Of a stretch of DNA of 64,000 bases, positions 24,335 through 37,302 are shown in pieces. How positions within the stretch are numbered: position 1 is the stretch's first letter; each line of letters opens with the position of its first letter. Position numbers and translations under genes: made by a program. The notes below the pieces were generated by a model. That model searched no databases, was not told the DNA's origin, and was given only the letters and a program-made list of their open reading frames with translations. Source of the DNA: an uncultured Pelagibacteraceae bacterium (GTDB lineage Bacteria > Pseudomonadota > Alphaproteobacteria > Pelagibacterales > Pelagibacteraceae); the NCBI GenBank assembly GCA_902570125.1, contig CACFXK010000002.1, forward strand, positions 18,380 through 82,379. Reading direction: 5' to 3'.

Positions 24335-25461
24335 CTTTTTTTTCTATTTGAAACTTTGCATGCATCGATAAATTTTGCAGTTTCCAGTCCTTCGTCCTCA
24401 TTAGGGTAAAAATACCTTTTTTTTACATTATTTTTCAAAGAAGCTGCAAATTCACGATAAATATTTGCAAATGCATCTAAATAACCTTCAGGATGTCCAA
24501 ATTTTAATCTAGAAAATTTTTTAGACAATTCGGCATTAAAAAAACCTCTTTCAATAAATTTAACAGCACCATTAGATGGATTAAGTTTTAAATAGTTTGG
24601 ATCGTTTTGAACCCATTCCAAACTTCCTTTCGTTCCAAATATTCTTATTCGTAATCCGTAAACACCGCCTCTAGCCATCACACTTGTCCAAAACATTCCT
24701 TTAGCTCCATTATTAAAATTAATCATTACTTGAGCATTGTTGTCCATTTTAACTTTATTTGAAACTTGTTTAATATCTGCAAAAATAGTTTTACCTTTTA
24801 AACCTGATATATAAGTTGCCATATGATATGCATGGGACCCAATTTCATTCAGGACCGCTGAAGCTCCAACGATATTTTTGTCTATTTTCCATTTAAACTT
24901 TTTCTTTGCATTTTTTTGAGTGATATTTTCTCCATCTGACCAATCCTGAACATATTCAACATTTATATATTCAACTTTTCCAATTTTACCTTTTTCAACC
25001 AATACTTTTGCTTCTCTAACCATAGGATAAGCAGAATAATTATGTGTCAAAGCATACTTAATTTTTTTATTTGATTTTATTTTTTTAAATAATTTCTTAG
25101 CTTGGGCAAGATTTCCAGCAAATGGTTTATCAGAAATCACATTAATATTTTTATCAATAAATTTTTCAGCAATAATTTGGTGACTTGAAGGAGGTGTCAT
25201 TATAGCCACAACATTAATACCATCTTTTCTTTCCGCTTCTCTTTCAGCCATTTCTCTAAAATTTGAATAGCATCTCTCTTTTAAAATACCTAGGCTTTGA
25301 CCAAAGCTTTTAGATAGTTTTGAATTTCTTGAAAAAACACCAGCAACTATCTCATATTGATTATCAAATCTTGATGAAATTCTATGAACATTACCAATCC
25401 AGGATTTTGGGCCACCTCCAACTACACCAAGCTGGATTTTTTTTCCTTTAATTAATCTCAT
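24316..25461 (-). CDS. Gfo/Idh/MocA oxidoreductase (inositol/polyol-associated subfamily)
   Basis: GVVGGG..SWIG.VH, DKP, EYVQDW, EIGSHAYH, GHPEGYLDAFANIY; start moved to ATG 25461 to remove overlap with iolE. Confidence 0.85.
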   Translation of the reverse strand: MRLIKGKKIQLGVVGGGPKSWIGNVHRISSRFDNQYEIVAGVFSRNSKLSKSFGQSLGILKERCYSNFREMAEREAERKDGINVVAIMTPPSSHQIIAEKFIDKNINVISDKPFAGNLAQAKKLFKKIKSNKKIKYALTHNYSAYPMVREAKVLVEKGKIGKVEYINVEYVQDWSDGENITQKNAKKKFKWKIDKNIVGASAVLNEIGSHAYHMATYISGLKGKTIFADIKQVSNKVKMDNNAQVMINFNNGAKGMFWTSVMARGGVYGLRIRIFGTKGSLEWVQNDPNYLKLNPSNGAVKFIERGFFNAELSKKFSRLKFGHPEGYLDAFANIYREFAASLKNNVKKRYFYPNEDEGLETAKFIDACKVSNRKKRWVKIK

Positions 25462-25492
25462 GATTAAATATATCTTAACAAATAAAAAATTT

Positions 25493-26395
25493 ATGTCAGT
25501 AAAATTAGGTATAGCACCAATTGCTTGGAGTAATGATGACATGCCTGAATTAGGTGGAGATACTCCTTTAGAGCAATGTTTGTCAGAAGCAAGTAAGGCT
25601 GGATATGTTGGTATTGAATCAGGTGGTAAATTCCCAAAAACATCAAACGAATTATTACCAAAGTTAGATAAGTATAACTTAAAATTATGTTCTGGTTGGT
25701 ATAGCGGAAATCTTAGAAAAAATTCTGTTGAACAAGAAAAAAATTTAATTCAAGACCAACTGAAATTATTTAAAGATTGTGAGGCTCCGTGTATCGTTTT
25801 TGCTGAAGTTTTTGGTTCAATACAGGGTGATCCAACAAAAAAACTTTCCAATAGGCCAAAGATGACGGACCAAGAATGGAAAGATTATTGTACAAAAATT
25901 TCTGAACTTGCAAAGTATCTTGAAGATGAAGGTATGCCTTTAGCTTATCACCATCATATGGGTACAGTAATAGAAACAGAAGAAGAAACTATTAGATTAC
26001 TAGAAAACACAGATGATAGTGTAAAATTAACTTTAGATACTGGTCATATGTTATTTGCTAAGGGAAACTCAATTAATATAATTAATAAATTTAAAGAAAG
26101 AGTAATCCACATACACTGCAAAGATATTAGAGAAGAAGTATTAAAAAAAGCCCTTTCTGAAGATTTGAGTTTTAGGGACGCTTTTTTAGAAGGTGCTTTT
26201 ACGGTACCTGGTGATGGGTGTATCGACTACAAACCTCTGTTTGATATTCTAAAAAAAAATAATTATCAAGGTTGGCTTGTCGTAGAGGCTGAACAAGATC
26301 CTAAAAAAGCTAATCCACTTGAGTACGCTATCAAGGGTTACAAATATATTACTGATACTTTAAAGAAATCAAATTTAGAGATTAATAATCTATAA
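25493..26395 (+). CDS. iolE: 2-keto-myo-inositol (myo-inosose-2) dehydratase
   Basis: LGIAPIAWSNDDMPELGG, YHHHMGT, DTGH, HIHCKD, FTVPGDG, VVEAEQDP; start at ATG 25493. Confidence 0.95.
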   Translation: MSVKLGIAPIAWSNDDMPELGGDTPLEQCLSEASKAGYVGIESGGKFPKTSNELLPKLDKYNLKLCSGWYSGNLRKNSVEQEKNLIQDQLKLFKDCEAPCIVFAEVFGSIQGDPTKKLSNRPKMTDQEWKDYCTKISELAKYLEDEGMPLAYHHHMGTVIETEEETIRLLENTDDSVKLTLDTGHMLFAKGNSINIINKFKERVIHIHCKDIREEVLKKALSEDLSFRDAFLEGAFTVPGDGCIDYKPLFDILKKNNYQGWLVVEAEQDPKKANPLEYAIKGYKYITDTLKKSNLEINNL

Positions 26396-27346
26396 TTTTA
26401 CTTTTTTACTGTCTTCAAGTTTACCATCGAAAAAATCAAAAATATTTTGAATAGTTTCTTTTGCCATTCTAGTCATGCATTCCTCAGTGAATGCTGCAGC
26501 ATGAGGACTAAGGAAAACTTTGTCATTTTTTAATAAAGGATTATCAGCCTCTGGAGGCTCTACCTCAAATACATCAATTCCTGCTCCAAAAATCAAATTT
26601 TCATTCAATGCCCTATCTAAATCTTTTTCATTTATAATACCGCCTCTTGCAGCATTTATGATGATGCAGTTTTTTTTCATCGTTTTTAGAAGTTCGTAAT
26701 TTATAATATTTTTAGTTTGATCAGTTAAAGGTATATGGAGTGAGACAGCATCCATGTCTTTAATAGCTTCTGATAAATCTTCAACTTTTTTACCACCCAT
26801 TTTGCTTATTGTTTCTGAGTCTACAAATGGATCGTAAACAAAAACGTTCATTTCAAATCCTAAACATCTTTTAATCAACGCTTTTCCTATTCTTCCAAAT
26901 CCAGCAATAAGAATGTTTTTATCCCAAATCTCTATAGTTTTTGGTAATTTATTTCGTTCAGTAAATTTTCCATTTTTGACTGAATGGTCATACATACTCT
27001 TTCTTTTTGAGATACTTAAAAGCATGAAAAGAACATGTTCTGCAACTGCCACAGCATTTGCTGTTGCGGTTATTGCTACGTCGATGTTTCCTTTTTTACA
27101 GCTATTTAAATCAATATTATCGTAACCAACTCCATGTCTTGAAATTATTTTAAGGTTTTTTGCATTTTCAATTGCCTCAGCAGGTAATATCGAGGTTCTT
27201 AAAGAAACTGCATCTGCATCTACAATTTTTTGTTTCACATTTTCAACACTTAAATCTTCAACAACCTCGTAACTATAGTCGCTATTACTTTTTAATAATT
27301 CCATACCTTTTTCATGAATAGGTTGGACAATGAGAATTTTTTTCAT
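26390..27346 (-). CDS. D-isomer-specific 2-hydroxyacid dehydrogenase (SerA-like, no ACT domain)
   Basis: SRHGVGYDNID, GFGRIG, INAARGG, DVFEVEP, SPHAA. Confidence 0.88.
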   Translation of the reverse strand: MKKILIVQPIHEKGMELLKSNSDYSYEVVEDLSVENVKQKIVDADAVSLRTSILPAEAIENAKNLKIISRHGVGYDNIDLNSCKKGNIDVAITATANAVAVAEHVLFMLLSISKRKSMYDHSVKNGKFTERNKLPKTIEIWDKNILIAGFGRIGKALIKRCLGFEMNVFVYDPFVDSETISKMGGKKVEDLSEAIKDMDAVSLHIPLTDQTKNIINYELLKTMKKNCIIINAARGGIINEKDLDRALNENLIFGAGIDVFEVEPPEADNPLLKNDKVFLSPHAAAFTEECMTRMAKETIQNIFDFFDGKLEDSKKVKL

Positions 27347-27360
27347 AATTTTAAAAAAAA

Positions 27361-28350
27361 TTATATTAGTCTTGCAAGATCTCTTTTACTATTTCTAAAT
27401 GTTGGAAGTGGATATTTAAATGCATACTTTCTTGGAATACATTTATTCTTTGCCTTTTCCCACAAAGCAATCCATTGCTTGTAGTTGTGGATGGTAATAT
27501 TTTTTTTATTTTTACTTCTTACATAAAAATTGGGCAAAGGTTTCCTACCAGATGGGGTTCCAGCTCTATTGTATCTTAAATCAGCGCTAATTCTAAAATC
27601 ATTGGATATATTAGGCAATGAACAGTGAATGGAGTGTTTGTGTAAAATAATAATATCGCCAACATTAGCCTCCAGAAAAACTGGCTTGTAATTATTAAGT
27701 AGTTTACTATCTTTTATTTCTACCTGACCTCTATATCCTGATATATGATTTAATAGTCCCAATTTATTAATTTCTTTTACTGTAATCATGCATCCATTTT
27801 TTTTAGTAGTTTTAGTAAATGGAATCCAAACAGTTACCATATCAGTTAATCTTTGTCCCAAAGATGATAATACTGCTGCATCCTGATGCCATGGAGTTCT
27901 ACCTGAGAGACCATCGTGAACAGAATGTTTAGGTAATTTATTTTCGGGTTGTTTAATTCTTGTATTTTGAACTGGATTTGAGAGAATTTCTGGCCCTAAT
28001 AATTTTTCAACCACATCCAAGATTTTTTTGTGATTAATTAAATTCCATAAAGATTGAGATGCAAAATAATCACTATCTTTTTTCACGTGATCTCTTGGAA
28101 GTCTAGTATTAAAATATTGATCAAGATCGTAAATTTTTAGTTTTGAAATGTATGTGTATTTTTTTTTAAAGCTATATTTAAAAATTTTTTCTTTCAAATG
28201 CTCAGGAGCAAATTTATGAACTAAATTATCCATTACATATTCCATGTCATTTAAAATTGGTTTTAAATCTTTATTGAAATTAAGAACATTTCTTACTCTT
28301 AGGAAGCCATCTCTATCTAAAATACTCTTTAATTTAGTCTTAATTTGCAT
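27361..28350 (-). CDS. PhyH-family Fe(II)/2-oxoglutarate dioxygenase
   Basis: TPWHQD (HxD), VTVWIPF...NGCM, IHCSLPN (distal His), RISADLRY. Confidence 0.85.
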   Translation of the reverse strand: MQIKTKLKSILDRDGFLRVRNVLNFNKDLKPILNDMEYVMDNLVHKFAPEHLKEKIFKYSFKKKYTYISKLKIYDLDQYFNTRLPRDHVKKDSDYFASQSLWNLINHKKILDVVEKLLGPEILSNPVQNTRIKQPENKLPKHSVHDGLSGRTPWHQDAAVLSSLGQRLTDMVTVWIPFTKTTKKNGCMITVKEINKLGLLNHISGYRGQVEIKDSKLLNNYKPVFLEANVGDIIILHKHSIHCSLPNISNDFRISADLRYNRAGTPSGRKPLPNFYVRSKNKKNITIHNYKQWIALWEKAKNKCIPRKYAFKYPLPTFRNSKRDLARLI

Positions 28351-28355
28351 AATTA

Positions 28356-29216
28356 TTAATATTTTAGCAAATAATTCGAATCATGAAAAGATGTAAGCAT
28401 TCTTTTTTTCGTCGCAACAATATGTGGATGATATTCAAGATTTTTATATTTCCATATCACTGGCTTGTTAAGAGCATAACTTCCATAAATAAAAAATCTT
28501 TTTGGACAGTTTTTTTCCTTAAATCTATTTACTCCGTGATAAGAATTTGGAGTAGATTTAAAGAAAATTACACTTCCCTGTTTTGGTGTGAATTCCTTTA
28601 ATTTATCAAGTTCATTAGTCTTAGGAAACCTTCTAAAGCTTTTTCTAGGGTTTTTGTTTACTTTTTTCCTATATAAAGTAAGTGATCCTCCATTTTTTTT
28701 TGGTATGTCGGTTAAATAGATCAAAAAATTATATAGCCTGTTCACATCATCTCTATGTGGTCTCAATCTATATCCTCCTTTAGATACTGAGAAATCAATA
28801 TCTAAATTTAAATTTGGGTTTTTATAATCTTTACCTAGTAGTTTTTTTAGCTCTTGGGAATTTACTTTTCTTTTAAGTGTATATTTTTTTTTATTAAATT
28901 TTTTTGGTTTAAACAAACTTTCCCAAGTATTTGCCTTAAATTCTTTTTTAAATTTTTTATCAATTTTTTTATAAAAGGATTGTGTATTGAAAGTAGCAAA
29001 AAGTTTTTTTGAGATTTTAGAACTTGAGATATATTTGTTGAAATTTTTTGATCCTTTATTAATCCTACTTCTGCCACCCATAATCATATCATCAAAACTT
29101 TTTGAATTAGTTATTTCTTTAATTAAAGAATAACACACTTTTTTACTGATTATTTGTTCTCCAACAATGACTTGGAAGTTTGATTTAATTTTCTTTAGTT
29201 TACTAATTTTCAGCAT
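28356..29216 (-). CDS. 2OG-Fe(II) oxygenase superfamily protein
   Basis: LRPHRD (HxD), NFLIYL..GGSL, NSYHGV (distal His), downstream Arg (KRFFIY). Confidence 0.8.
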   Translation of the reverse strand: MLKISKLKKIKSNFQVIVGEQIISKKVCYSLIKEITNSKSFDDMIMGGRSRINKGSKNFNKYISSSKISKKLFATFNTQSFYKKIDKKFKKEFKANTWESLFKPKKFNKKKYTLKRKVNSQELKKLLGKDYKNPNLNLDIDFSVSKGGYRLRPHRDDVNRLYNFLIYLTDIPKKNGGSLTLYRKKVNKNPRKSFRRFPKTNELDKLKEFTPKQGSVIFFKSTPNSYHGVNRFKEKNCPKRFFIYGSYALNKPVIWKYKNLEYHPHIVATKKRMLTSFHDSNYLLKY

Positions 29217-30161
29217 TTAGCTGTACATGCCCTCTTTTACTTTAATCATTTTGTACATAAGGTCATTTAATGGTGTGGCTATTCCATGTTTTTTTCCTAT
29301 TTTAGACACGGCGCCACTTATGAAATCAATTTCAGTTTTTCTTTTATAAAGCACATCAAAAGCCATTGAAGACTTATTTGTTTGTTTTGAGTCAACAATT
29401 TTATTAAACATAAATAAACACTCATCTTCAGAAACATTAACGCCATCTGCTAAAGCAACGTCTCTTGTTTCTAAAATTATCTTTTTTCCTAAACTTCTAG
29501 AAACGTCGTTGGCATTATTATTTATGTAAAGATCAGTATGATGTAGATCAAAAATAGCTGAAAGTGGGCCTATTGCGGTTAAAGCAAAAAGTTTCATCCA
29601 TTTTCTTTTTTTTACATCCTCAGCAGCAATCATTTCCAAATTATGAGCAGTAAAGGTGTCTGCAATTTCGGTTATTCTATTAGTTATCCCACCATCATAT
29701 TCTCCAATCCAAGAGGGTAGAGAAGCATGATTCATAATATGACCAGGACCTAAGATATTTGATGCTTGAGTTGTTGTTCCTCCGATTACTTTTTCATCGC
29801 CAACAATACTTTTAATTATAGCTTCATGTCCAATTCCATTTTGAAAAGACATAAAAACTGTTTTATCGTTAATAATATTTTTAATACTTTTTAAAGCAGG
29901 CTCTAGAGCTGTTGCTTTACACATCACTATCACAGCATCAACTTTTCCAATTGTAGATGGATCTGATGTTGCTGGTACTTTGATAAATCTATCACCACCA
30001 TGACCATCCATCTTTAGACCATTTTTATTTATTTCATCAACATGCTCTTTCCAAACGTCAATGAGCGTTACATTTAGACCTTTTTCTGCTAGTAGGCCTC
30101 CAAATAGACAACCCATTGCCCCTGCACCAAGAACCGCAACTTTTAAATCTTTATTATTCAT
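29217..30161 (-). CDS. Ketopantoate reductase (PanE/ApbA)-family 2-oxoacid reductase
   Basis: LGAGAMG, FQNGIG, WMKL (catalytic Lys), KSSM, TEIDFISG; substrate-site Asn residues altered. Confidence 0.85.
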   Translation of the reverse strand: MNNKDLKVAVLGAGAMGCLFGGLLAEKGLNVTLIDVWKEHVDEINKNGLKMDGHGGDRFIKVPATSDPSTIGKVDAVIVMCKATALEPALKSIKNIINDKTVFMSFQNGIGHEAIIKSIVGDEKVIGGTTTQASNILGPGHIMNHASLPSWIGEYDGGITNRITEIADTFTAHNLEMIAAEDVKKRKWMKLFALTAIGPLSAIFDLHHTDLYINNNANDVSRSLGKKIILETRDVALADGVNVSEDECLFMFNKIVDSKQTNKSSMAFDVLYKRKTEIDFISGAVSKIGKKHGIATPLNDLMYKMIKVKEGMYS

Positions 30162-30224: not shown

Positions 30225-31193
30225 ATGGAATTAAAAATAGAAAAAGGAATTTTCAAAAAATTTAAGTTAGAAGAAATATCAAACGCATTAGAAAAAGGTC
30301 TGTCAAAGAATTATGACAGTGTAAAAACAGAAGTAATTGATTGTCCAAATTTAAGAAACTGGGATTGTCCGTCTGAAGGCATGAGTGGTAACCAAAGGAT
30401 AATCGATGTTGGAGGAGAGCCTTACATGCATGATCCTAAATATCTTGGAACAGAATTTGATTATTTTGAAATCTCTAAAATGATTGGGTCAGAAAGATCG
30501 TACGCACTTGGCGCTGGATCTGGAGCAATGTCTTGCCTGGATGGACACTGTGGAGAATTGATTATAAATGAAAACTTTATTACAAAAGAAAATAAATCTT
30601 TAATTGCTAGGGTAGGAAAAGATAAAGAATGTATAGTAGAGGACTATACTGCAAGCAAACATGGCGGCCTGGGTAATGTTTATTATTCAGATGGTGTTAA
30701 AGGAAAAGTTATATATTTAAAGATAAAAAAAAGAATTGGAAAACAAGGTTCATTACCTCAATCAATAAGAGCAGTACTTTCAGAAAATCTTAAAATTGGG
30801 AATAAAAATCATATTGCTCTCGCTGGTGTATTTAGAGTTTTGAATGGAAAAATAAGATCACATGTACAACCAGATTATAAGGATATAAAACATGAATATT
30901 ATGATCCACAATTGATGAAATGCACAAAAGATTTTCTACAATTTTATGAGCCTGTTGGACCAAAATTACAATGCTATACTGTTTTATGGACTGGTGATCC
31001 AACGGGAGGAGAATTAAATTTAAGAGAGTCCGGTGAGCATACTCACTTTCACTCATATGAGCATAAGAATGATGCTGGACATTATCATTTTGATGTTTCA
31101 CCAGATGAAATTGAATATGAAGGGTACTTTAATATTGCACAAGAAGTATATAGAGTGAATAATATCTATAAAGAATTAAAAAATATAAAATGA
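30225..31193 (+). CDS. DUF1907 / C11orf54 (PTD012)-family Zn protein, putative beta-keto sugar acid decarboxylase
   Basis: Collinear with human C11orf54 as remembered: LEEI..ALEKGL..NY..V...VIDCPNL, RIIDVGGEPY, HVQP, EHTHFHS...GHYHFD..PD.IEYEGYF. Confidence 0.88.
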   Translation: MELKIEKGIFKKFKLEEISNALEKGLSKNYDSVKTEVIDCPNLRNWDCPSEGMSGNQRIIDVGGEPYMHDPKYLGTEFDYFEISKMIGSERSYALGAGSGAMSCLDGHCGELIINENFITKENKSLIARVGKDKECIVEDYTASKHGGLGNVYYSDGVKGKVIYLKIKKRIGKQGSLPQSIRAVLSENLKIGNKNHIALAGVFRVLNGKIRSHVQPDYKDIKHEYYDPQLMKCTKDFLQFYEPVGPKLQCYTVLWTGDPTGGELNLRESGEHTHFHSYEHKNDAGHYHFDVSPDEIEYEGYFNIAQEVYRVNNIYKELKNIK

Positions 31194-32005
31194 AAAAGAT
31201 TTATACTTGGGCCGCTCAACCTGCTAGCAGAACTCTTACAGTTGATGATCTTAAAAAAGCAAAAGGAAAAAAAAAATTTACTCAAGTCACAGCCAATACA
31301 ATAGATGAAGCTGATGCCGCAGAGAAGGCTGGGTTTGACATGATAATCTGCAATGCTTTTAATGTGAAACAGGTGAGAGAGGGATCAAAAAATCTATTTT
31401 TAACTGCTGCGCTAGTATTAAATAAGTTTGTCACTTCGGAAGATATCATGAGAGGAGCGTTTGAAGCCCTAGAAAATGGAGCTGATGCTGTAATGACACC
31501 TAGAAGTATGAAGATCATAGAAATGCTGGCTAATGAAGATGTTCCAGTTATGGGACATCTTGGTTTAGTTCCAAGAAAATCAACGTGGATTGGTGGTTTA
31601 AGAGCAGTAGGAAAAAATAGTGAAGAGGCACATGAACTTTTTTTAAAATTTAAAAGATTAGAAGATGCAGGAGCTTTTTCTGCTGAATGTGAGGTTATCC
31701 CAGAAAATGTAATGGGAGAAATCTCTAAAAGAACGAATATAGTTACAGTATCTTTAGGTTCAGGAAAGAAAGCTGATGTAATGTACCTGTTCATGGAAGA
31801 CATATGTGGAGATACTTTAAATCCTCCAAGACATTCAAAAGCTTATGGAAATTTATTAAAATTAAAAAATGAAATAAAAGTTGAGAGAGTTCGAGCTCTT
31901 AAGGCATTCAAAAAAGATTCAATGGCAGGAAAATTTCCAGGAAAAAAACAATCTTCAAATTTAAATAAAAAAGAATTCGAGTCTTTTCTTGATAAGCTTG
32001 ATTAA
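31190..32005 (+). CDS. PanB (ketopantoate hydroxymethyltransferase)-like protein, degenerate
   Basis: VPVMGHLGLVP, LEDAGAF, ECEVIP, SLGSG...D retained; GDS, DLPF and KIEGG motifs missing. Confidence 0.8.
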   Translation: MKKIYTWAAQPASRTLTVDDLKKAKGKKKFTQVTANTIDEADAAEKAGFDMIICNAFNVKQVREGSKNLFLTAALVLNKFVTSEDIMRGAFEALENGADAVMTPRSMKIIEMLANEDVPVMGHLGLVPRKSTWIGGLRAVGKNSEEAHELFLKFKRLEDAGAFSAECEVIPENVMGEISKRTNIVTVSLGSGKKADVMYLFMEDICGDTLNPPRHSKAYGNLLKLKNEIKVERVRALKAFKKDSMAGKFPGKKQSSNLNKKEFESFLDKLD

Positions 32006-32793
32006 TAAGTTTCAGATTCTTTTTTGCTTATTGAGCCTTTCATTTTTTCAACAATTGCTTTAGCACCTGCGCTCATAGCTCTTTGATCTGCACCAATAGT
32101 TACAAAGTTAAAACCTTTGTCGATCATTTTTTGTGCGTACTCTGGAGTTCCATTATGAATTCCTGCAAATATATTATTTTTTTTGGCATGCTCTAATATT
32201 CTTAATATTTCTGAATAAGCTTTTGTATCTTCTGCTCTGTCAAACCCAGGCTTTTCTCCTATTGCTAAACTTAAGTCAGCTGGACCAATATATATTCCAT
32301 CTACGCCATCTGTTGACATAATCTCATCTAATTTATCTAATGACTCTTTTGTTTCAATCATAGCTAATTTTAAAATTTCATCATTTGCATGGTCAGCATA
32401 ATCAGCTCCACCATAAATCAATCCTCTAACAGGACCAAAACTTCTATATCCTCTTGGAGGATACATACAAGCTTGAACAAATCTTTCCGCCTCTTCTTTG
32501 TTACTTACCATTGGACATATAATTCCATAACAACCAGCGTCTAAAATTTTCATTATTTGGCCTGGTTCATTCCAATTTACTCTAGCAAGAGGAGTTACAT
32601 CAGTTGATGAAATTGTTTGAAGCATTGGAAGTGCATTTGTGTAATCAACAAGTCCATGTTGCATATCTACAGTTAGAGAGTCCCAACCTTGATGCGCCAT
32701 AACTTCTGCTGATACAGTGCTTGGTATTTGTAACCAACCATTTACAACAGGCTTACCATCAGCCATCATTTGTTTGACTTTATTTTTTCTCAT
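32002..32793 (-). CDS. HpcH/HpaI-family class II pyruvate aldolase (GarL/RhmA-like)
   Basis: VDMQHG, PLARV, ILDAG, CPMV, YPPRGYRSFG, MIET, YIGPADL. Confidence 0.9.
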   Translation of the reverse strand: MRKNKVKQMMADGKPVVNGWLQIPSTVSAEVMAHQGWDSLTVDMQHGLVDYTNALPMLQTISSTDVTPLARVNWNEPGQIMKILDAGCYGIICPMVSNKEEAERFVQACMYPPRGYRSFGPVRGLIYGGADYADHANDEILKLAMIETKESLDKLDEIMSTDGVDGIYIGPADLSLAIGEKPGFDRAEDTKAYSEILRILEHAKKNNIFAGIHNGTPEYAQKMIDKGFNFVTIGADQRAMSAGAKAIVEKMKGSISKKESETY

Positions 32794-34235
32794 TAATAAT
32801 TGAGACCGAAGTGAGTATACTTAACGTTCAAATAATCTTTGATAGCCATTGAACCACCTTCTCTTCCATAACCTGTTTGTTTTATTCCTCCAAAAGGTAC
32901 TTCAGCAAATGCAATTGTTGGATGGTTCACTGCGCATGTTCCAGTTTCCATTTTTTCTGAGACTTTGTGTGCTTTTTCTAAAGAATTAGTGTAAATATAG
33001 CTTGCTAAACCAAGGTCATTATCATTTGCTCTTTCCACAACTTCATCTGTGTCTTTAAAAGTAAGCAATGGAACTAAAGGTCCGAATGGCTCTTCTTTAG
33101 CAATTGTAAAATTATCTTTAACATTGTCAAAAACAGTTGGTTCATAGAAATATCCTTTATTAAAACCAGCTGGTCTCTTTCCCCCACATAAAACTGTTGC
33201 TCCCTCACTTTTAGTTTTTTCTACTAATGCCTCTATTTCATTTAATCTTTTTTCTGTAGTTAAAGGTCCTAGAATTGTATCTTCATCCATTCCGTTACCA
33301 ACTTTCAGTTTAGTAACCTTTTCAACTAATTTTTTAGCAAATTCATCTTTTTTACTTTCATGAATATAAAATCTTGCTGGTGATATACAAACTTGACCAT
33401 TATTCCTAAATTTAGCAGTAATTGCCATGTCGGTTACCTTGTTAATATCTACGTCGTCAAAAACAATGAAAGGTGAATGGCCACTTAATTCCATTGTAAC
33501 TCTTTGGACTTTTTCAGCAGCTTGTTTTAAAATTAGTTTTCCAACTCTTGTTGAACCAGTTATAGAAACCTTTTTTACTATGTCAGATGATATTAATTGA
33601 GATGAGATTTTAGCTGGATCACCAGATAATAAATTTACTACTCCTGGAGGAACGCCCGCATCATTTATAATATTCATAAGTTCCATTACACTACCTGGAG
33701 TAATTACATCAGGCTTACAAATTACTGAGCATCCTGCAGCTAAAGCAGTGGAAATTTTTCTTGAGGATAAAACTATTGGAAAGTTCCATGGTATTAATCC
33801 AGCAACAACTCCAACAGGTTCATATTTTACATACATTCTTGTATGTTCAAATCTACTTTCAACTATCTGACCATAAATTCTTTTTGTTTCTTCAGAGTTC
33901 CACTCAAAAATATCTGCAGCTCCTCCAACTTCCCCTTTTGCTTCTGATAGTGGCTTTCCAACTTCTAATGTTAACCACTTAGCCAAATCATCAGTTCTCT
34001 CTCTCATAAGGTCGGCAATTTTTCTTATAATTTTTGATCTTTGCCAAGGTGGAGTATTTCTCCAAACTTCTAGACCTTTTTCTGCAGACTTAAGTGCTTT
34101 ATTTACATCTTTTTCACCTGCTTTAGATGCTTTACCTAAAACTTCTTCTGTTGCAGGATTTAAAACATCATAAGTTTCATTATTTTGTGATGCTTGCCAT
34201 TTGCCATCAATGAATTGTCCAAATTTGCTATACAT
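32793..34235 (-). CDS. NAD-dependent aldehyde dehydrogenase (SSADH / alpha-ketoglutarate semialdehyde dehydrogenase type)
   Basis: PWNFP, TGSTRVG, TMELSGH, KFRNNGQVCISP, EEPFGP, PFGGIKQTGYGREGG. Confidence 0.9.
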   Translation of the reverse strand: MYSKFGQFIDGKWQASQNNETYDVLNPATEEVLGKASKAGEKDVNKALKSAEKGLEVWRNTPPWQRSKIIRKIADLMRERTDDLAKWLTLEVGKPLSEAKGEVGGAADIFEWNSEETKRIYGQIVESRFEHTRMYVKYEPVGVVAGLIPWNFPIVLSSRKISTALAAGCSVICKPDVITPGSVMELMNIINDAGVPPGVVNLLSGDPAKISSQLISSDIVKKVSITGSTRVGKLILKQAAEKVQRVTMELSGHSPFIVFDDVDINKVTDMAITAKFRNNGQVCISPARFYIHESKKDEFAKKLVEKVTKLKVGNGMDEDTILGPLTTEKRLNEIEALVEKTKSEGATVLCGGKRPAGFNKGYFYEPTVFDNVKDNFTIAKEEPFGPLVPLLTFKDTDEVVERANDNDLGLASYIYTNSLEKAHKVSEKMETGTCAVNHPTIAFAEVPFGGIKQTGYGREGGSMAIKDYLNVKYTHFGLNY

Positions 34236-34290: not shown

Positions 34291-36135
34291 ATGAGAAAAA
34301 TAAAGCTTACTTGCGCGCATGCATTGGTTAAACATTTAATAGCTCAGAAAGTCTATATTGATGGTCAAGTTAAGCCTTTGTTTCCTGGTGTATTCGGTAT
34401 TTTTGGACATGGAAATGTAGCCTGTCTAGGACAAGCATTAGAAGAAAATAAAGAGCAACTTCCAACTTTCAGAGGTCATCACGAACAAAATATGGCTTTA
34501 ACAGGTGTTGCTTATGCAAGAGCTAAAAGAAGAAAGCAAATTTTTATTGCAACAAGTTCGGTTGGACCAGGATCTACAAATCTAGTTACAGCATCAGCTG
34601 TAGCAATGAGTAATAGATTGCCAATTTTATTTTTACCTGGAGACACTTACGCAAATAGAATGCCTGATCCTGTATTACAACAAGTGGAACATTTTTCAAA
34701 TCCTGGAATGACTGCTAACGACTCATTTAAACCAGTTACAAAATATTTTGATAGAATTACAAGACCAGAACAAATATTACAGTCACTTCCTCAAGCAATT
34801 CAAATCATGTTAGATCCAGCAGAGTGTGGACCTGCATGTTTATCTTTGTGCCAAGATGTACAAGGTGAAACTTTTGAGTATCCAGAAGAATTTTTTAAAG
34901 AAAGAATTCATTATATAAGAAGACCTAGACCTGACGATTTTCAAATCAAACAAGCAGTAGAAAAAATTAAAAATTCGAAAAAACCTATTATAATTTCTGG
35001 AGGGGGAGTATTTTATTCTGATGCTATGGATGAGTTAGCCAATTTTGCAATTAAACATAATATACCAGTAACTCAAACGGTTATGGGATATTCAACAATG
35101 AAAAAAGATCATTCTCATTTTGTAGGACCAATAGGTGGCTTAGGTGGTAAGGCAGCAAATAACTTAGCAAAAGAAACTGATTTAGCAATCTGCGTAGGAA
35201 CTAAGCTTGCAGATTTTACAACTGGCTCGTGGGCTAATTTTGAAAATCCTAAATTTAAATTAGTTTCAATTAATATAGCAAGACATGATGCTAATAAACA
35301 TTTAGGAGAAGCAGTTATAGGTGATGCAAAAGTTTCCTTAACAGAATTATCTAATGCTGTTGGAGATTGGAAATCATCTGATAGCTGGTATAAAAAATCA
35401 CAAGATGAGTTAAAATCTTGGAATGAATATGTAGATAAAGAAAGTGGCCCAACAAATCAAGAATTGCCAAGTTACGCTCACGCTGTTGGAGCAATTTATA
35501 GGAATTCAGATCCAACTGATATAGCAGTTACAGCAGCCGGAGGTTTGGTCGGAGAAGTTGTTCAAGTGTGGCGTCCAAAAGAGTTAAATACTCATGAAAC
35601 AGAGTGGGGATTTAGTTGCATGAGTTATGAAATTTCTGGTGCTCTTGGTATAAAAATGGCCAATCCTGATAAAGACGTAATTGCTTTTGTTGGCGATGGA
35701 TCATACCTACTTAACAATTCAGATATATATTCTTCAGTAATTACTAATAATAAATTAATAATCATTGTGTGTGATAATGGAGGTCATGCTGTTATAAATA
35801 GACTTCAATTGTTCAAGGGTGGAAAAGAATTTAATTGTTTGTTTAACTCTTCAAATATTCAAAACTCCATAGATGTAAATTTCGCTCAACATGCAGCAAG
35901 TATGGGAGCAAAATCAGAACATGTTTCTAGTATTTCAGAATTAGAAGAAGCATTTAAAAGAGCAAAACAATCAGATGTAACTTATGTTATATCAATTAAA
36001 ACACATAGTTACGAATGGCTTGAAGGATCAGCTTATTGGGAAAGCCCTACACTTGAGATACCAACAACAAAAGAGAACGAGGAAGCATTAAAACTTCACA
36101 AAGAAGGAAAATCAAAACAGAGACAAGGTGTTTAA
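34291..36135 (+). CDS. iolD: 3D-(3,5/4)-trihydroxycyclohexane-1,2-dione acylhydrolase (ThDP-dependent)
   Basis: FGIFGHGNV, TSSVGPGSTN, PDPVLQQVE, NDSFKPV..YFDRITRPEQ, EWGFSCMSYEI, GDGSY...DNGG..VINRLQ. Confidence 0.9.
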   Translation: MRKIKLTCAHALVKHLIAQKVYIDGQVKPLFPGVFGIFGHGNVACLGQALEENKEQLPTFRGHHEQNMALTGVAYARAKRRKQIFIATSSVGPGSTNLVTASAVAMSNRLPILFLPGDTYANRMPDPVLQQVEHFSNPGMTANDSFKPVTKYFDRITRPEQILQSLPQAIQIMLDPAECGPACLSLCQDVQGETFEYPEEFFKERIHYIRRPRPDDFQIKQAVEKIKNSKKPIIISGGGVFYSDAMDELANFAIKHNIPVTQTVMGYSTMKKDHSHFVGPIGGLGGKAANNLAKETDLAICVGTKLADFTTGSWANFENPKFKLVSINIARHDANKHLGEAVIGDAKVSLTELSNAVGDWKSSDSWYKKSQDELKSWNEYVDKESGPTNQELPSYAHAVGAIYRNSDPTDIAVTAAGGLVGEVVQVWRPKELNTHETEWGFSCMSYEISGALGIKMANPDKDVIAFVGDGSYLLNNSDIYSSVITNNKLIIIVCDNGGHAVINRLQLFKGGKEFNCLFNSSNIQNSIDVNFAQHAASMGAKSEHVSSISELEEAFKRAKQSDVTYVISIKTHSYEWLEGSAYWESPTLEIPTTKENEEALKLHKEGKSKQRQGV

Positions 36136-36144
36136 AAACTTTAT

Positions 36145-37302
36145 ATGAATAAAGTTTTTAAAATTGGCTTAATAGGCTGCGGACATATTGCTGAAACATA
36201 TTTTAGAGCTGAAAAATATTTTAATAATATAAAAATTATTAAGTGTGCTGATATTAATATGCAAGCTGCAAAACGTTGTGCATTGAATTATGGGATAAAA
36301 TTTTTAACTGTAAACGAACTTCTTAAAGACAAAGAAATTGAAATTATTTTAAACCTTACAATTCCAAAAGCACATTATCTAATTTCTAAAAAAGCTTTAG
36401 CAAATGGAAAACATGTATACTCTGAAAAGCCTTTAGCAATAAATTTAAAAGATGGAAAAGATTTAATAAAACTTTCAAAGAAAAATAAACTTTATTTAGG
36501 TAATGCTCCTGACACTTTTTTGGGTGGTGGAATACAAAAATCAAAAGAACTCGTTGAAAAAAATTCTATCGGAAAAATAAAATTAGGTAATGCAGTTTTT
36601 GCTTTTCCTGGAATTGAGTCTTATCACCCTAACCCTGAACCTTGGTTTGCAAAAAAAGAAGGAGGTCCTGTTATTGATATGGGACCTTATTATATTACTG
36701 CTTTAGTAAATCTTTTAGGACCTGCAAGAAAAGTAATTAGCACCATCATTCAAGGTCAAAAATATAGGACTATAGGAATAGGACCAAAAAAAGGAAAAAA
36801 ATTTAAGGTAGAATGTCCAACTACATATTTATCCACAATCACTTTTAAAAATAACTCTGTTATAAGATTAACATTATCATTTGATGTAATAGCTCATCAA
36901 AGAAATCATATTGAATTATATGGAGAAAAGGGGTCAATGATTGTTCCAGATCCAAATATGTTTGGCGGATCAGTGTTAATCTGTAATAAATTAGGTGATA
37001 ACTGGAGAGAATTTAAGACCACAAAAATGTCTTTAGGACGTATTAACATTAGAACACAAAGTTCTAGAGCTAACGAAGCGCCAACCAATGCAAACTATCG
37101 AGGAGCTGGATTGTCTGAGATGGCATATTCAATTGAGAACAAAAGAAAACATTTATGTAGTGGTGAAATATCTTTACATGTATTAGAAATTATAACTTCA
37201 ATTATGAAAGCAGCTAAATCTGGAAAATCTGTATCAGTAAATACAAACTGCGCAAAACCAAAAAAGTTTTTAGAAATAGATGCAAAGAAATTACTTAAAT
37301 AA
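36145..37302 (+). CDS. Gfo/Idh/MocA oxidoreductase
   Basis: IGCGHI, NLTIPKAH, YSEKPLA, GNAPDTFLGGG, GGPVIDMGPYY. Confidence 0.88.
   Translation: MNKVFKIGLIGCGHIAETYFRAEKYFNNIKIIKCADINMQAAKRCALNYGIKFLTVNELLKDKEIEIILNLTIPKAHYLISKKALANGKHVYSEKPLAINLKDGKDLIKLSKKNKLYLGNAPDTFLGGGIQKSKELVEKNSIGKIKLGNAVFAFPGIESYHPNPEPWFAKKEGGPVIDMGPYYITALVNLLGPARKVISTIIQGQKYRTIGIGPKKGKKFKVECPTTYLSTITFKNNSVIRLTLSFDVIAHQRNHIELYGEKGSMIVPDPNMFGGSVLICNKLGDNWREFKTTKMSLGRINIRTQSSRANEAPTNANYRGAGLSEMAYSIENKRKHLCSGEISLHVLEIITSIMKAAKSGKSVSVNTNCAKPKKFLEIDAKKLLK

Follow-up and report, generated by a model that had tools for sequence, protein, structure and literature searches.

The gene at positions 31190..32005 on the forward strand of a 64,000-nucleotide stretch of DNA (the window) from an uncultured Pelagibacteraceae bacterium (GenBank assembly GCA_902570125.1, contig CACFXK010000002.1) was found to belong to an offshoot of the PanB family that is distinct, conserved, and uncharacterized. 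The 271-aa product (P0001), referred to here as the PanB-like protein, has the PanB (β/α)8 fold without the ligands for Mg2+ and the 2-oxo acid, and very probably is not a ketopantoate hydroxymethyltransferase. With a probability of roughly 45%, it is an active enzyme that keeps the one-carbon half-site of PanB, operates downstream of substrate-hydroxylating oxygenases, and transfers a one-carbon unit at the formaldehyde level to tetrahydrofolate (THF); its catalysis, its use of THF, and its one-carbon role are features that we infer. The source genome is of the Pelagibacter (SAR11) type, 1.27 Mb in size and 86% complete, and the G+C content of the window is about 30%.

The ATG start codon of the PanB-like gene (31190-31192) overlaps the TGA stop codon (31191-31193) of the preceding gene, which encodes a DUF1907 protein, in an ATGA at 31190..31193 (+), confirming the 4-bp overlap claimed in the preliminary description of this DNA. 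The start codon call was considered correct because homologues keep the N-terminus MKKIYTWAA. When a profile of 74 PanB-like family members was aligned full length to E. coli PanB (1M3U; E = 8.5e-48), G44/D45/S46 of PanB corresponded to N55/A56/F57, directly followed by a 21-residue deletion of the β2-α2 loop, D84 corresponded to A74 (within FLTAA) and K112 to M102, and E114 fell in a three-residue gap at MTPRS (gap/P104). On the other side of the comparison, H136 and E181 were retained as H123 (GHLGLVP) and E168 (ECEVIP). In the AlphaFold2 model of the PanB-like protein (predicted local distance difference test score, 97.1), strand 51-55 continues directly into helix 56-65, and the loop that carries D45 and S46 in PanB was therefore judged to be truly absent. 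The loss of the D45/S46 loop, D84, K112, and E114 with retention of H136 and E181, which had previously been proposed from a comparison by eye, was thus reproduced by both the profile alignment and the model. An alternative MAFFT placement of the deletion over strand 2 was set aside, as the profile alignment and the secondary structure of the model agree otherwise. The model further contains an additional N-terminal hairpin (residues 2-14) and an additional C-terminal helix (260-270). Its top Foldseek matches were all PanB structures, with template modeling (TM) scores of approximately 0.70 and a deviation of 1.9 Å over 225 columns to 1O68, so that the PanB fold is predicted with confidence.

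These residue changes were not confined to the window. A word-based search retrieved 1,320 relatives of the PanB-like protein, many of them about 60% identical to the SAR11 protein and belonging to hosts with genomes of 2-7 Mb, and an exhaustive search revealed full-length members at identities as low as 35%. The identity of about 60% extends to bacteria with genomes of 5-7 Mb, which points to selection. The ligand losses were consistent across alignments of 33 and 74 sequences of the clade, and because they are held across the whole clade, they reflect neither chance nor sequencing error. No conserved acidic residue was present at the three Mg2+ ligand positions in either alignment, and the compensating acidic ligands that a proper alignment might have disclosed did not appear there; the only newly conserved acid, E166, belongs to strand 6, across the barrel from these positions. 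Certain more distant members retain the long β2-α2 loop, yet without the ligands. H123 and E168 were invariant in the 74 sequences, and E166, D196, D204, P213, R214, and H215 were at least 90% conserved. As far as sequence conservation can tell, this pattern suggests a working active site and not decay. It also bears on the alternative that the protein is a non-catalytic PanB-derived subunit, a partner of either DUF1907 or the oxygenase described below. The loss of the canonical catalytic metal site is what such a role would predict, whereas the invariance or near-invariance of H123, E166, E168, D196, D204, R214, and H215, which occupy active-site positions, across members only 35% identical is not.

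The clade was detected in 22 of 400 sampled alphaproteobacterial genomes (23 of 401 including the source genome), with up to five copies per genome, whereas no copy was detected in the other three genomes of the SAR11 family that were included; the phylum-level genome sample consisted mostly of the same class as the class-level sample. It was also carried by 275 plasmid records, mostly rhizobial, and those inspected bore the RefSeq label PanB together with a pantothenate Gene Ontology term. The window protein displays the hallmarks of the clade, namely the shortened β2-α2 loop, non-acidic ligand positions, a PRH motif, and the extra C-terminal helix. In a maximum-likelihood tree, it was placed in a supported clade of nine members (96/87) with those of loci L003, L004, L005, L037, and L080, in which DUF1907-linked, dehydrogenase/TIM-barrel-linked, and oxygenase-linked members are mixed. 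Oxygenase-linked members occurred on every major branch of the tree, and the DUF1907 linkage requires two origins. Five dispersed copies were seen in one genome (G155), and tandem paralogues were located beside two PhyH-like genes in another (G209 C1:538237-539909, locus L042; 1.6 Mb, 31% G+C). Longer, fused forms of the PanB-like protein were not found, although this is weak evidence. An apparent PanB-PanB fusion (P0129, 542 aa, on a 4-kb metagenome contig) consisted of two identical tandem copies and is probably an assembly artefact, and other apparent fusions involved only partial PanB-like pieces that look chimeric. Literature searches returned no relevant publication describing the PanB-like clade or bacterial DUF1907.

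The preliminary description had doubted that the protein is a conventional ketopantoate hydroxymethyltransferase, and had called for a genome search for canonical panB and panC. Both genes were present elsewhere in the source genome: the canonical panB on contig C11 (305 bits), whose product P0123 retains GDSLG, DMPF, and KLEGG intact, and panC on contig C3. Five other genomes carrying the look-alike were examined in the same respect. In two of these, each 99% complete (G110, a single contig, and G079), the look-alike was present and neither canonical panB nor panC was detected, which places its role outside pantothenate synthesis. The earlier doubt was therefore upheld by the lost ligands, by NCBIfam scores below cut-off, by the separate panB and panC, and by the occurrence of the look-alike in genomes with neither.

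That it might nevertheless be a genuine ketopantoate hydroxymethyltransferase relying on other metal ligands appears exceedingly improbable, even though the Pfam threshold of PF02548 was passed (123 bits), the RefSeq name is PanB, and a third 99% complete genome (G288) contained panC and the look-alike with no canonical panB detected. The Pfam match was restricted to profile positions 67-258, and the NCBIfam PanB models TIGR00222 (98.1 bits against a cut-off of 207.55) and NF001452 (108 against 272 bits) were both missed by more than 100 bits. Furthermore, the three acidic ligands, K112, and S46 are all lost and unreplaced at those positions, and canonical PanB is known to strictly require a divalent metal (PMC13488298). 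The coexistence of the look-alike with canonical panB and panC in one genome, its presence in genomes without panC, and its location in catabolic islands, never beside panC or panD, also speak against this assignment.

To which genes the clade is linked was surveyed within about 15 kb around 38 genomic matches, in which open reading frames (ORFs) were called and neighbors were scanned by family. For 30 loci, the 143 ORFs lying no more than 2.6 kb away included members of FA_desaturase (11), Rieske (7), AP_endonuc_2 (5), PhyH (4), Gfo/Idh/MocA (4), FA_hydroxylase (3), and Ring_hydroxyl_A (2), and nine further loci yielded FA_desaturase (6), Rieske (6), AP_endonuc_2 (4), ferredoxin reductase (3), Gfo/Idh/MocA (2), and FA_hydroxylase (2). 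A di-iron oxygenase or Rieske gene lay within 5 kb of 27 of 45 PanB-like genes, and several others were accompanied by PhyH. Tripartite ATP-independent periplasmic (TRAP) or sugar ATP-binding cassette (ABC) importers and LacI regulators were also frequent. Over about 45 loci, the recurrent neighbors of the PanB-like clade are oxygenases, namely membrane di-iron systems of the MocD/MocE/MocF type, sterol-desaturase-type enzymes, and PhyH, and these are accompanied by inositol-type enzymes, LacI regulators, and importers of sugars. In the annotated operon of S. meliloti and R. leguminosarum, the genes for a LacI regulator, a fatty-acid desaturase family protein, a MocE-family ferredoxin, and a flavin adenine dinucleotide (FAD)-dependent oxidoreductase are followed by the PanB-like gene. 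On plasmids of Mesorhizobium (L080) and Bradyrhizobium (L083), the order is AraC regulator, ribokinase, PanB-like protein, sterol desaturase family protein, Rieske protein, (TIM barrel), and FAD oxidoreductase; this operon hints at a pentose-like product. A second recurrent operon, in which the genes for a HIBADH-like dehydrogenase and an AP_endonuc_2 protein precede the PanB-like gene, was found in L003, L005/L006, and the contig encoding P0076. On the last of these, the gene for a DUF1989 + GCV_T protein of the trimethylamine N-oxide demethylase type, with a THF-binding domain, lies 3 kb upstream of the operon, representing the only folate-linked neighbor observed. In the window itself, two Fe(II)/2-oxoglutarate (2OG) oxygenase genes, one of the PhyH family (27361..28350, -; family match) and the other of 2OG-FeII_Oxy_3 (28356..29216, -; also conserved in L065-L068), are situated 2-4 kb from the PanB-like gene.

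A reaction compatible with these neighbors can be derived from PanB itself. The unit that PanB exchanges between a carbanion and 5,10-methylene-THF is at the formaldehyde level, and enzymes of the neighboring oxygenase families usually hydroxylate carbons of methyl or methylene groups. In the product complex 1M3U, the residues equivalent to H136 and E181 and two Asp presumably face the transferred hydroxymethyl carbon, and S46 and K112 are taken here to bind the carboxylate of the 2-oxo acid. Viewed in this way, the clade has given up the Mg2+/2-oxo-acid carboxylate half of the active site (the D45/S46 loop, D84, K112, and E114), has kept the equivalents of H136 and E181 as well as the two Asp shared with PanB (D196 and D204), and has gained the clade-specific E166, R214-H215, and C-terminal helix. 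The one-carbon/THF half-reaction would then be retained, with the carbon acceptor changed or dropped. After import of a sugar or cyclitol, one of its methyl or branch carbons would first be hydroxylated by an oxygenase, and the PanB-like enzyme would act next. By one route, formaldehyde arising from O- or N-methyl hydroxylation would be captured as 5,10-methylene-THF; by the other, a substrate other than a 2-oxo acid would lose a C-hydroxymethyl branch next to a carbonyl through a retro-aldol step like that of PanB. If the latter holds, the operon could not do without the enzyme, and the ribokinase and inositol-type neighbors would fit as well. In most relatives, the oxygenase is a membrane di-iron system of the MocD/MocE/MocF or sterol-desaturase type; for this SAR11 lineage, the candidates are the soluble pair of Fe(II)/2OG oxygenases encoded in the divergent operon of an ApbA-like gene. 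The suggestion of the preliminary description that the protein is a repurposed one-carbon-transfer enzyme or C-C lyase fits these findings and is kept as the leading idea, as a prediction of function. Its narrower version, in which the clade comprises a new kind of PanB-derived folate enzyme, is put forward only tentatively. Such enzymes would either be dedicated to activating formaldehyde onto THF, as a THF counterpart of Fae that directs carbon from oxidative demethylation to the folate pool, or catalyze THF-dependent de-hydroxymethylation of keto-sugars or inososes other than 2-oxo acids, on which oxygenases would have turned C-methyl groups into C-hydroxymethyl branches.

Several points weigh against a one-carbon role downstream of oxygenases. 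Neither a MocD-type nor a sterol-desaturase-type di-iron oxygenase, nor a Rieske gene, was found with the PanB-like gene in the window; the sole FA_desaturase gene of the genome (C2:167051-167788) lies about 117 kb downstream, and no FA_hydroxylase gene was found in the source genome at its 86% completeness. The two candidate Fe(II)/2OG oxygenases are connected with the PanB-like gene only by proximity, and about a third of the loci are without a recognized oxygenase nearby. Folate or one-carbon genes were not enriched among the surveyed neighbors. Formaldehyde and THF condense spontaneously, so that a capture enzyme is not strictly needed, and O-demethylation needs no lyase. Finally, E181 has also been proposed to serve enolization as the general base, so that keeping it would suit a reaction on the sugar skeleton just as well.

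The last point leads to the alternative that the PanB-like protein acts on the skeleton of a sugar or sugar acid without any one-carbon or folate role, for example as an isomerase or epimerase working by enolization, as a dehydratase, or as an aldolase that does not depend on folate. It would be partnered by a HIBADH-like dehydrogenase and by a TIM-barrel enzyme resembling xylose isomerase (AP_endonuc_2), whose genes often precede the PanB-like gene. In SAR11, its step would come before or after those of the ApbA-like dehydrogenase and of DUF1907 as a β-keto-acid decarboxylase. PanB itself enolizes 2-oxo acids, and the general-base Glu is retained. The gene order of the second recurrent operon is conserved in all three of the settings named above, the dehydrogenase of L005 is closest to L-threonate dehydrogenase (211 bits, under the cut-off), and sugar importers and LacI regulators are common, with folate genes not enriched nearby. 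However, the residues that hold the 2-oxo acid and its enolate (the Mg2+ ligands, K112, and S46) are precisely those lost, and no conserved Lys is available for a Schiff base, in that K130 varies across the clade and K25 precedes strand 1 at the apparent bottom of the barrel. This alternative also leaves unexplained why the commonest neighbor is an oxygenase, often in a four-gene operon without any other catabolic enzyme. On balance, an enzyme of the sugar skeleton is less likely than the one-carbon reading, but a substantial alternative to it.

With respect to the surroundings of the PanB-like gene in the window, the DUF1907 gene (30225..31193, +) encodes a 322-aa protein matched by PF08925 (197 bits), the family of human C11orf54. 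Divergent from it is the operon comprising the genes for an ApbA/PanE-family reductase (29217..30161, -), the two oxygenases, and, as the last gene, a D-2-hydroxyacid dehydrogenase family protein (26390..27346, -). On the other side, the gene for an HpcH/HpaI-family 2-keto-3-deoxy-acid aldolase (32002..32793, -) converges with the PanB-like gene with a 4-bp overlap of their ends, followed by those for an aldehyde dehydrogenase (32793..34235, -; family match), IolD (34291..36135, +; equivalog-level, 792 bits against a cut-off of 715), and a Gfo/Idh/MocA-family oxidoreductase (36145..37302, +), which scored 59 bits against the IolG cut-off of 355. IolE, myo-inosose-2 dehydratase, is encoded at 25460..26395 (+) at the equivalog level (413 bits against a cut-off of 290). 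None of iolB, iolC, iolJ, and iolA was among the annotated neighbors between 20 and 44 kb. At 38.3-42.6 kb, the window contains rbsD, a ribokinase-like gene, and a ribose-type ABC importer.

Comparison of SAR11 contigs revealed a stable core in which the genes for the ApbA-like protein, the 2OG oxygenase, PhyH, and the 2-hydroxyacid dehydrogenase lie on one strand with DUF1907 divergent, and in which the HpcH aldolase, the aldehyde dehydrogenase, IolD, and the Gfo/Idh/MocA enzyme are encoded beyond the slot next to DUF1907; SAR11 relatives retain PhyH, the 2OG oxygenase, and ApbA beside the PanB-like gene. The slot after DUF1907 is variable. It is occupied by the PanB-like gene with the ATGA overlap in the window and L085-L088, is empty in L084, and contains the gene for a 137-aa probable winged-helix protein alone in L067 and L068. 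In L066, the latter gene lies between those for DUF1907 and the PanB-like protein, with no ATGA overlap. The DUF1907 protein (P0274) is identical in L084 and L085-L088. The PanB-like gene is thus a presence/absence polymorphism in near-identical SAR11 backgrounds. The gene for the 137-aa protein, a probable regulator, is likewise present or absent among strains at that slot. The idea that the 137-aa protein of L066 is an interchangeable enzyme was dropped, as it looks like a winged-helix regulator (SarA/Rot, E = 0.0014, a weak match).

In the preliminary description, the PanB-like gene had been called translationally coupled to DUF1907 and its product a possible non-catalytic partner of that protein, with co-occurrence analysis proposed as a check. 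A partnership that defines the PanB-like protein was not supported by the survey: DUF1907 was detected in 2 of 401 genomes as opposed to 23 of 401 for the PanB-like family (source genome included), the identical DUF1907 protein occurs with and without the PanB-like gene, and the regular neighbors of the clade, for which adjacency to DUF1907 is not obligate, are oxygenases, an association that the preliminary description had missed. In the second DUF1907 genome (G155), DUF1907 adjoins an FA_hydroxylase-family gene and no PanB-like copy. DUF1907 clearly works without the PanB-like gene, and the ATGA overlap is a real and recurrent, but recent strain-level arrangement and not a functional pairing. 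Accordingly low is the likelihood of the non-catalytic subunit raised above, which we consider improbable. Several SAR11 contigs share the overlap of its start codon with the DUF1907 stop, and at other loci oxygenase operons tightly enclose the gene, as would befit a subunit of either partner. Nonetheless, DUF1907 is missing from 21 of the 22 other genomes carrying the family and stands alone in L067, L068, and L084, many loci contain neither DUF1907 nor a di-iron oxygenase, and no fused forms were found.

The constant neighbor of DUF1907 is instead an ApbA/PanE-family dehydrogenase with weak 3HCDH_N similarity, which adjoins it in L066-L068, L084-L089, and L003, divergently in SAR11 and co-directionally in L003. 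Human C11orf54, of the DUF1907 family, is a β-keto-L-gulonate decarboxylase (PMC12337341), and the bacterial pair of DUF1907 and ApbA-family dehydrogenase echoes that of C11orf54 and the L-gulonate 3-dehydrogenase CRYL1 in the animal pentose pathway (PMC12337341). By analogy, the bacterial pair may perform the oxidative decarboxylation of a sugar acid, possibly downstream of IolD. The animal CRYL1-C11orf54 pathway has no PanB-like component, and the likeness concerns the neighbor genes of the window, not the PanB-like protein.

In comparison with characterized systems, the PanB-like protein is closest to PanB, with which it shares (EC 2.1.2.11; 1M3U, 1O66/1O68, 1OY0, 3VAV, and 3EZ4) the (β/α)8 fold and C-terminal helical arm, the GH(L/V)G(L)xP motif, the strand-6 Glu, and the two Asp after strands 7 and 8. 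It differs in the deleted 21-residue loop, the Ala and Met in place of D84 and K112, the absent E114, and the added N-terminal hairpin, PRH motif, and C-terminal helix, as well as in falling under the NCBIfam cut-offs and in being associated with oxygenases in catabolic clusters and not with panC or panD. The isocitrate lyase/phosphoenolpyruvate (PEP) mutase superfamily, including 2-methylisocitrate lyase and phosphonopyruvate hydrolase, furnished second-tier Foldseek matches with the same barrel type (E ≈ 1e-8, TM ≈ 0.5), but all of its characterized members hold a divalent metal on acidic residues of strands 2-4, and these positions are non-acidic in the PanB-like protein.

The closest likeness in gene context is to MocDEF, which in a genetic model reportedly acts as the demethylase of 3-O-methyl-scyllo-inosamine. 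Most PanB-like relatives are located in operons that also encode an FAD reductase, a Rieske ferredoxin of the MocE family, and a membrane oxygenase of the fatty-acid desaturase family, near genes for LacI regulators and inositol-type enzymes. MocD/MocE/MocF constitute the ferredoxin-oxygenase system in the published model of rhizopine catabolism in Rhizobium/Sinorhizobium, and the moc gene model, as far as it is outlined in the citing article, includes no PanB-like gene (Bahar et al. 1998, cited in PMC10107442). In the window, by contrast, no MocD-type gene is adjacent, and the neighboring operon instead encodes two Fe(II)/2OG oxygenases that are soluble. Their occurrence in the place of MocDEF, the overlap with DUF1907, and the presence/absence polymorphism are specific to this window.

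These results have consequences for annotation. Hundreds of RefSeq genes, together with abundant SAR11 metagenome genes, are named 3-methyl-2-oxobutanoate hydroxymethyltransferase, and this name is almost certainly wrong. The mislabel can mislead predictions of vitamin-B5 auxotrophy for marine bacteria, and annotation pipelines would wrongly credit G110 and G079 with the pantothenate step. The polymorphism among SAR11 strains, on the other hand, provides a natural experiment on the PanB-like gene. In oxygenase operons of the MocDEF type, the clade marks a fourth component that is conserved, and this points to an unrecognized step in the breakdown of modified sugars or inositols. If the one-carbon role proposed here is true, rhizobia and SAR11 would share an undescribed route, composed of an oxygenase and a PanB-like enzyme, for methylated or branched sugars and cyclitols, and this would explain how methyl carbon is harvested without free formaldehyde in streamlined SAR11 cells and in rhizobia.

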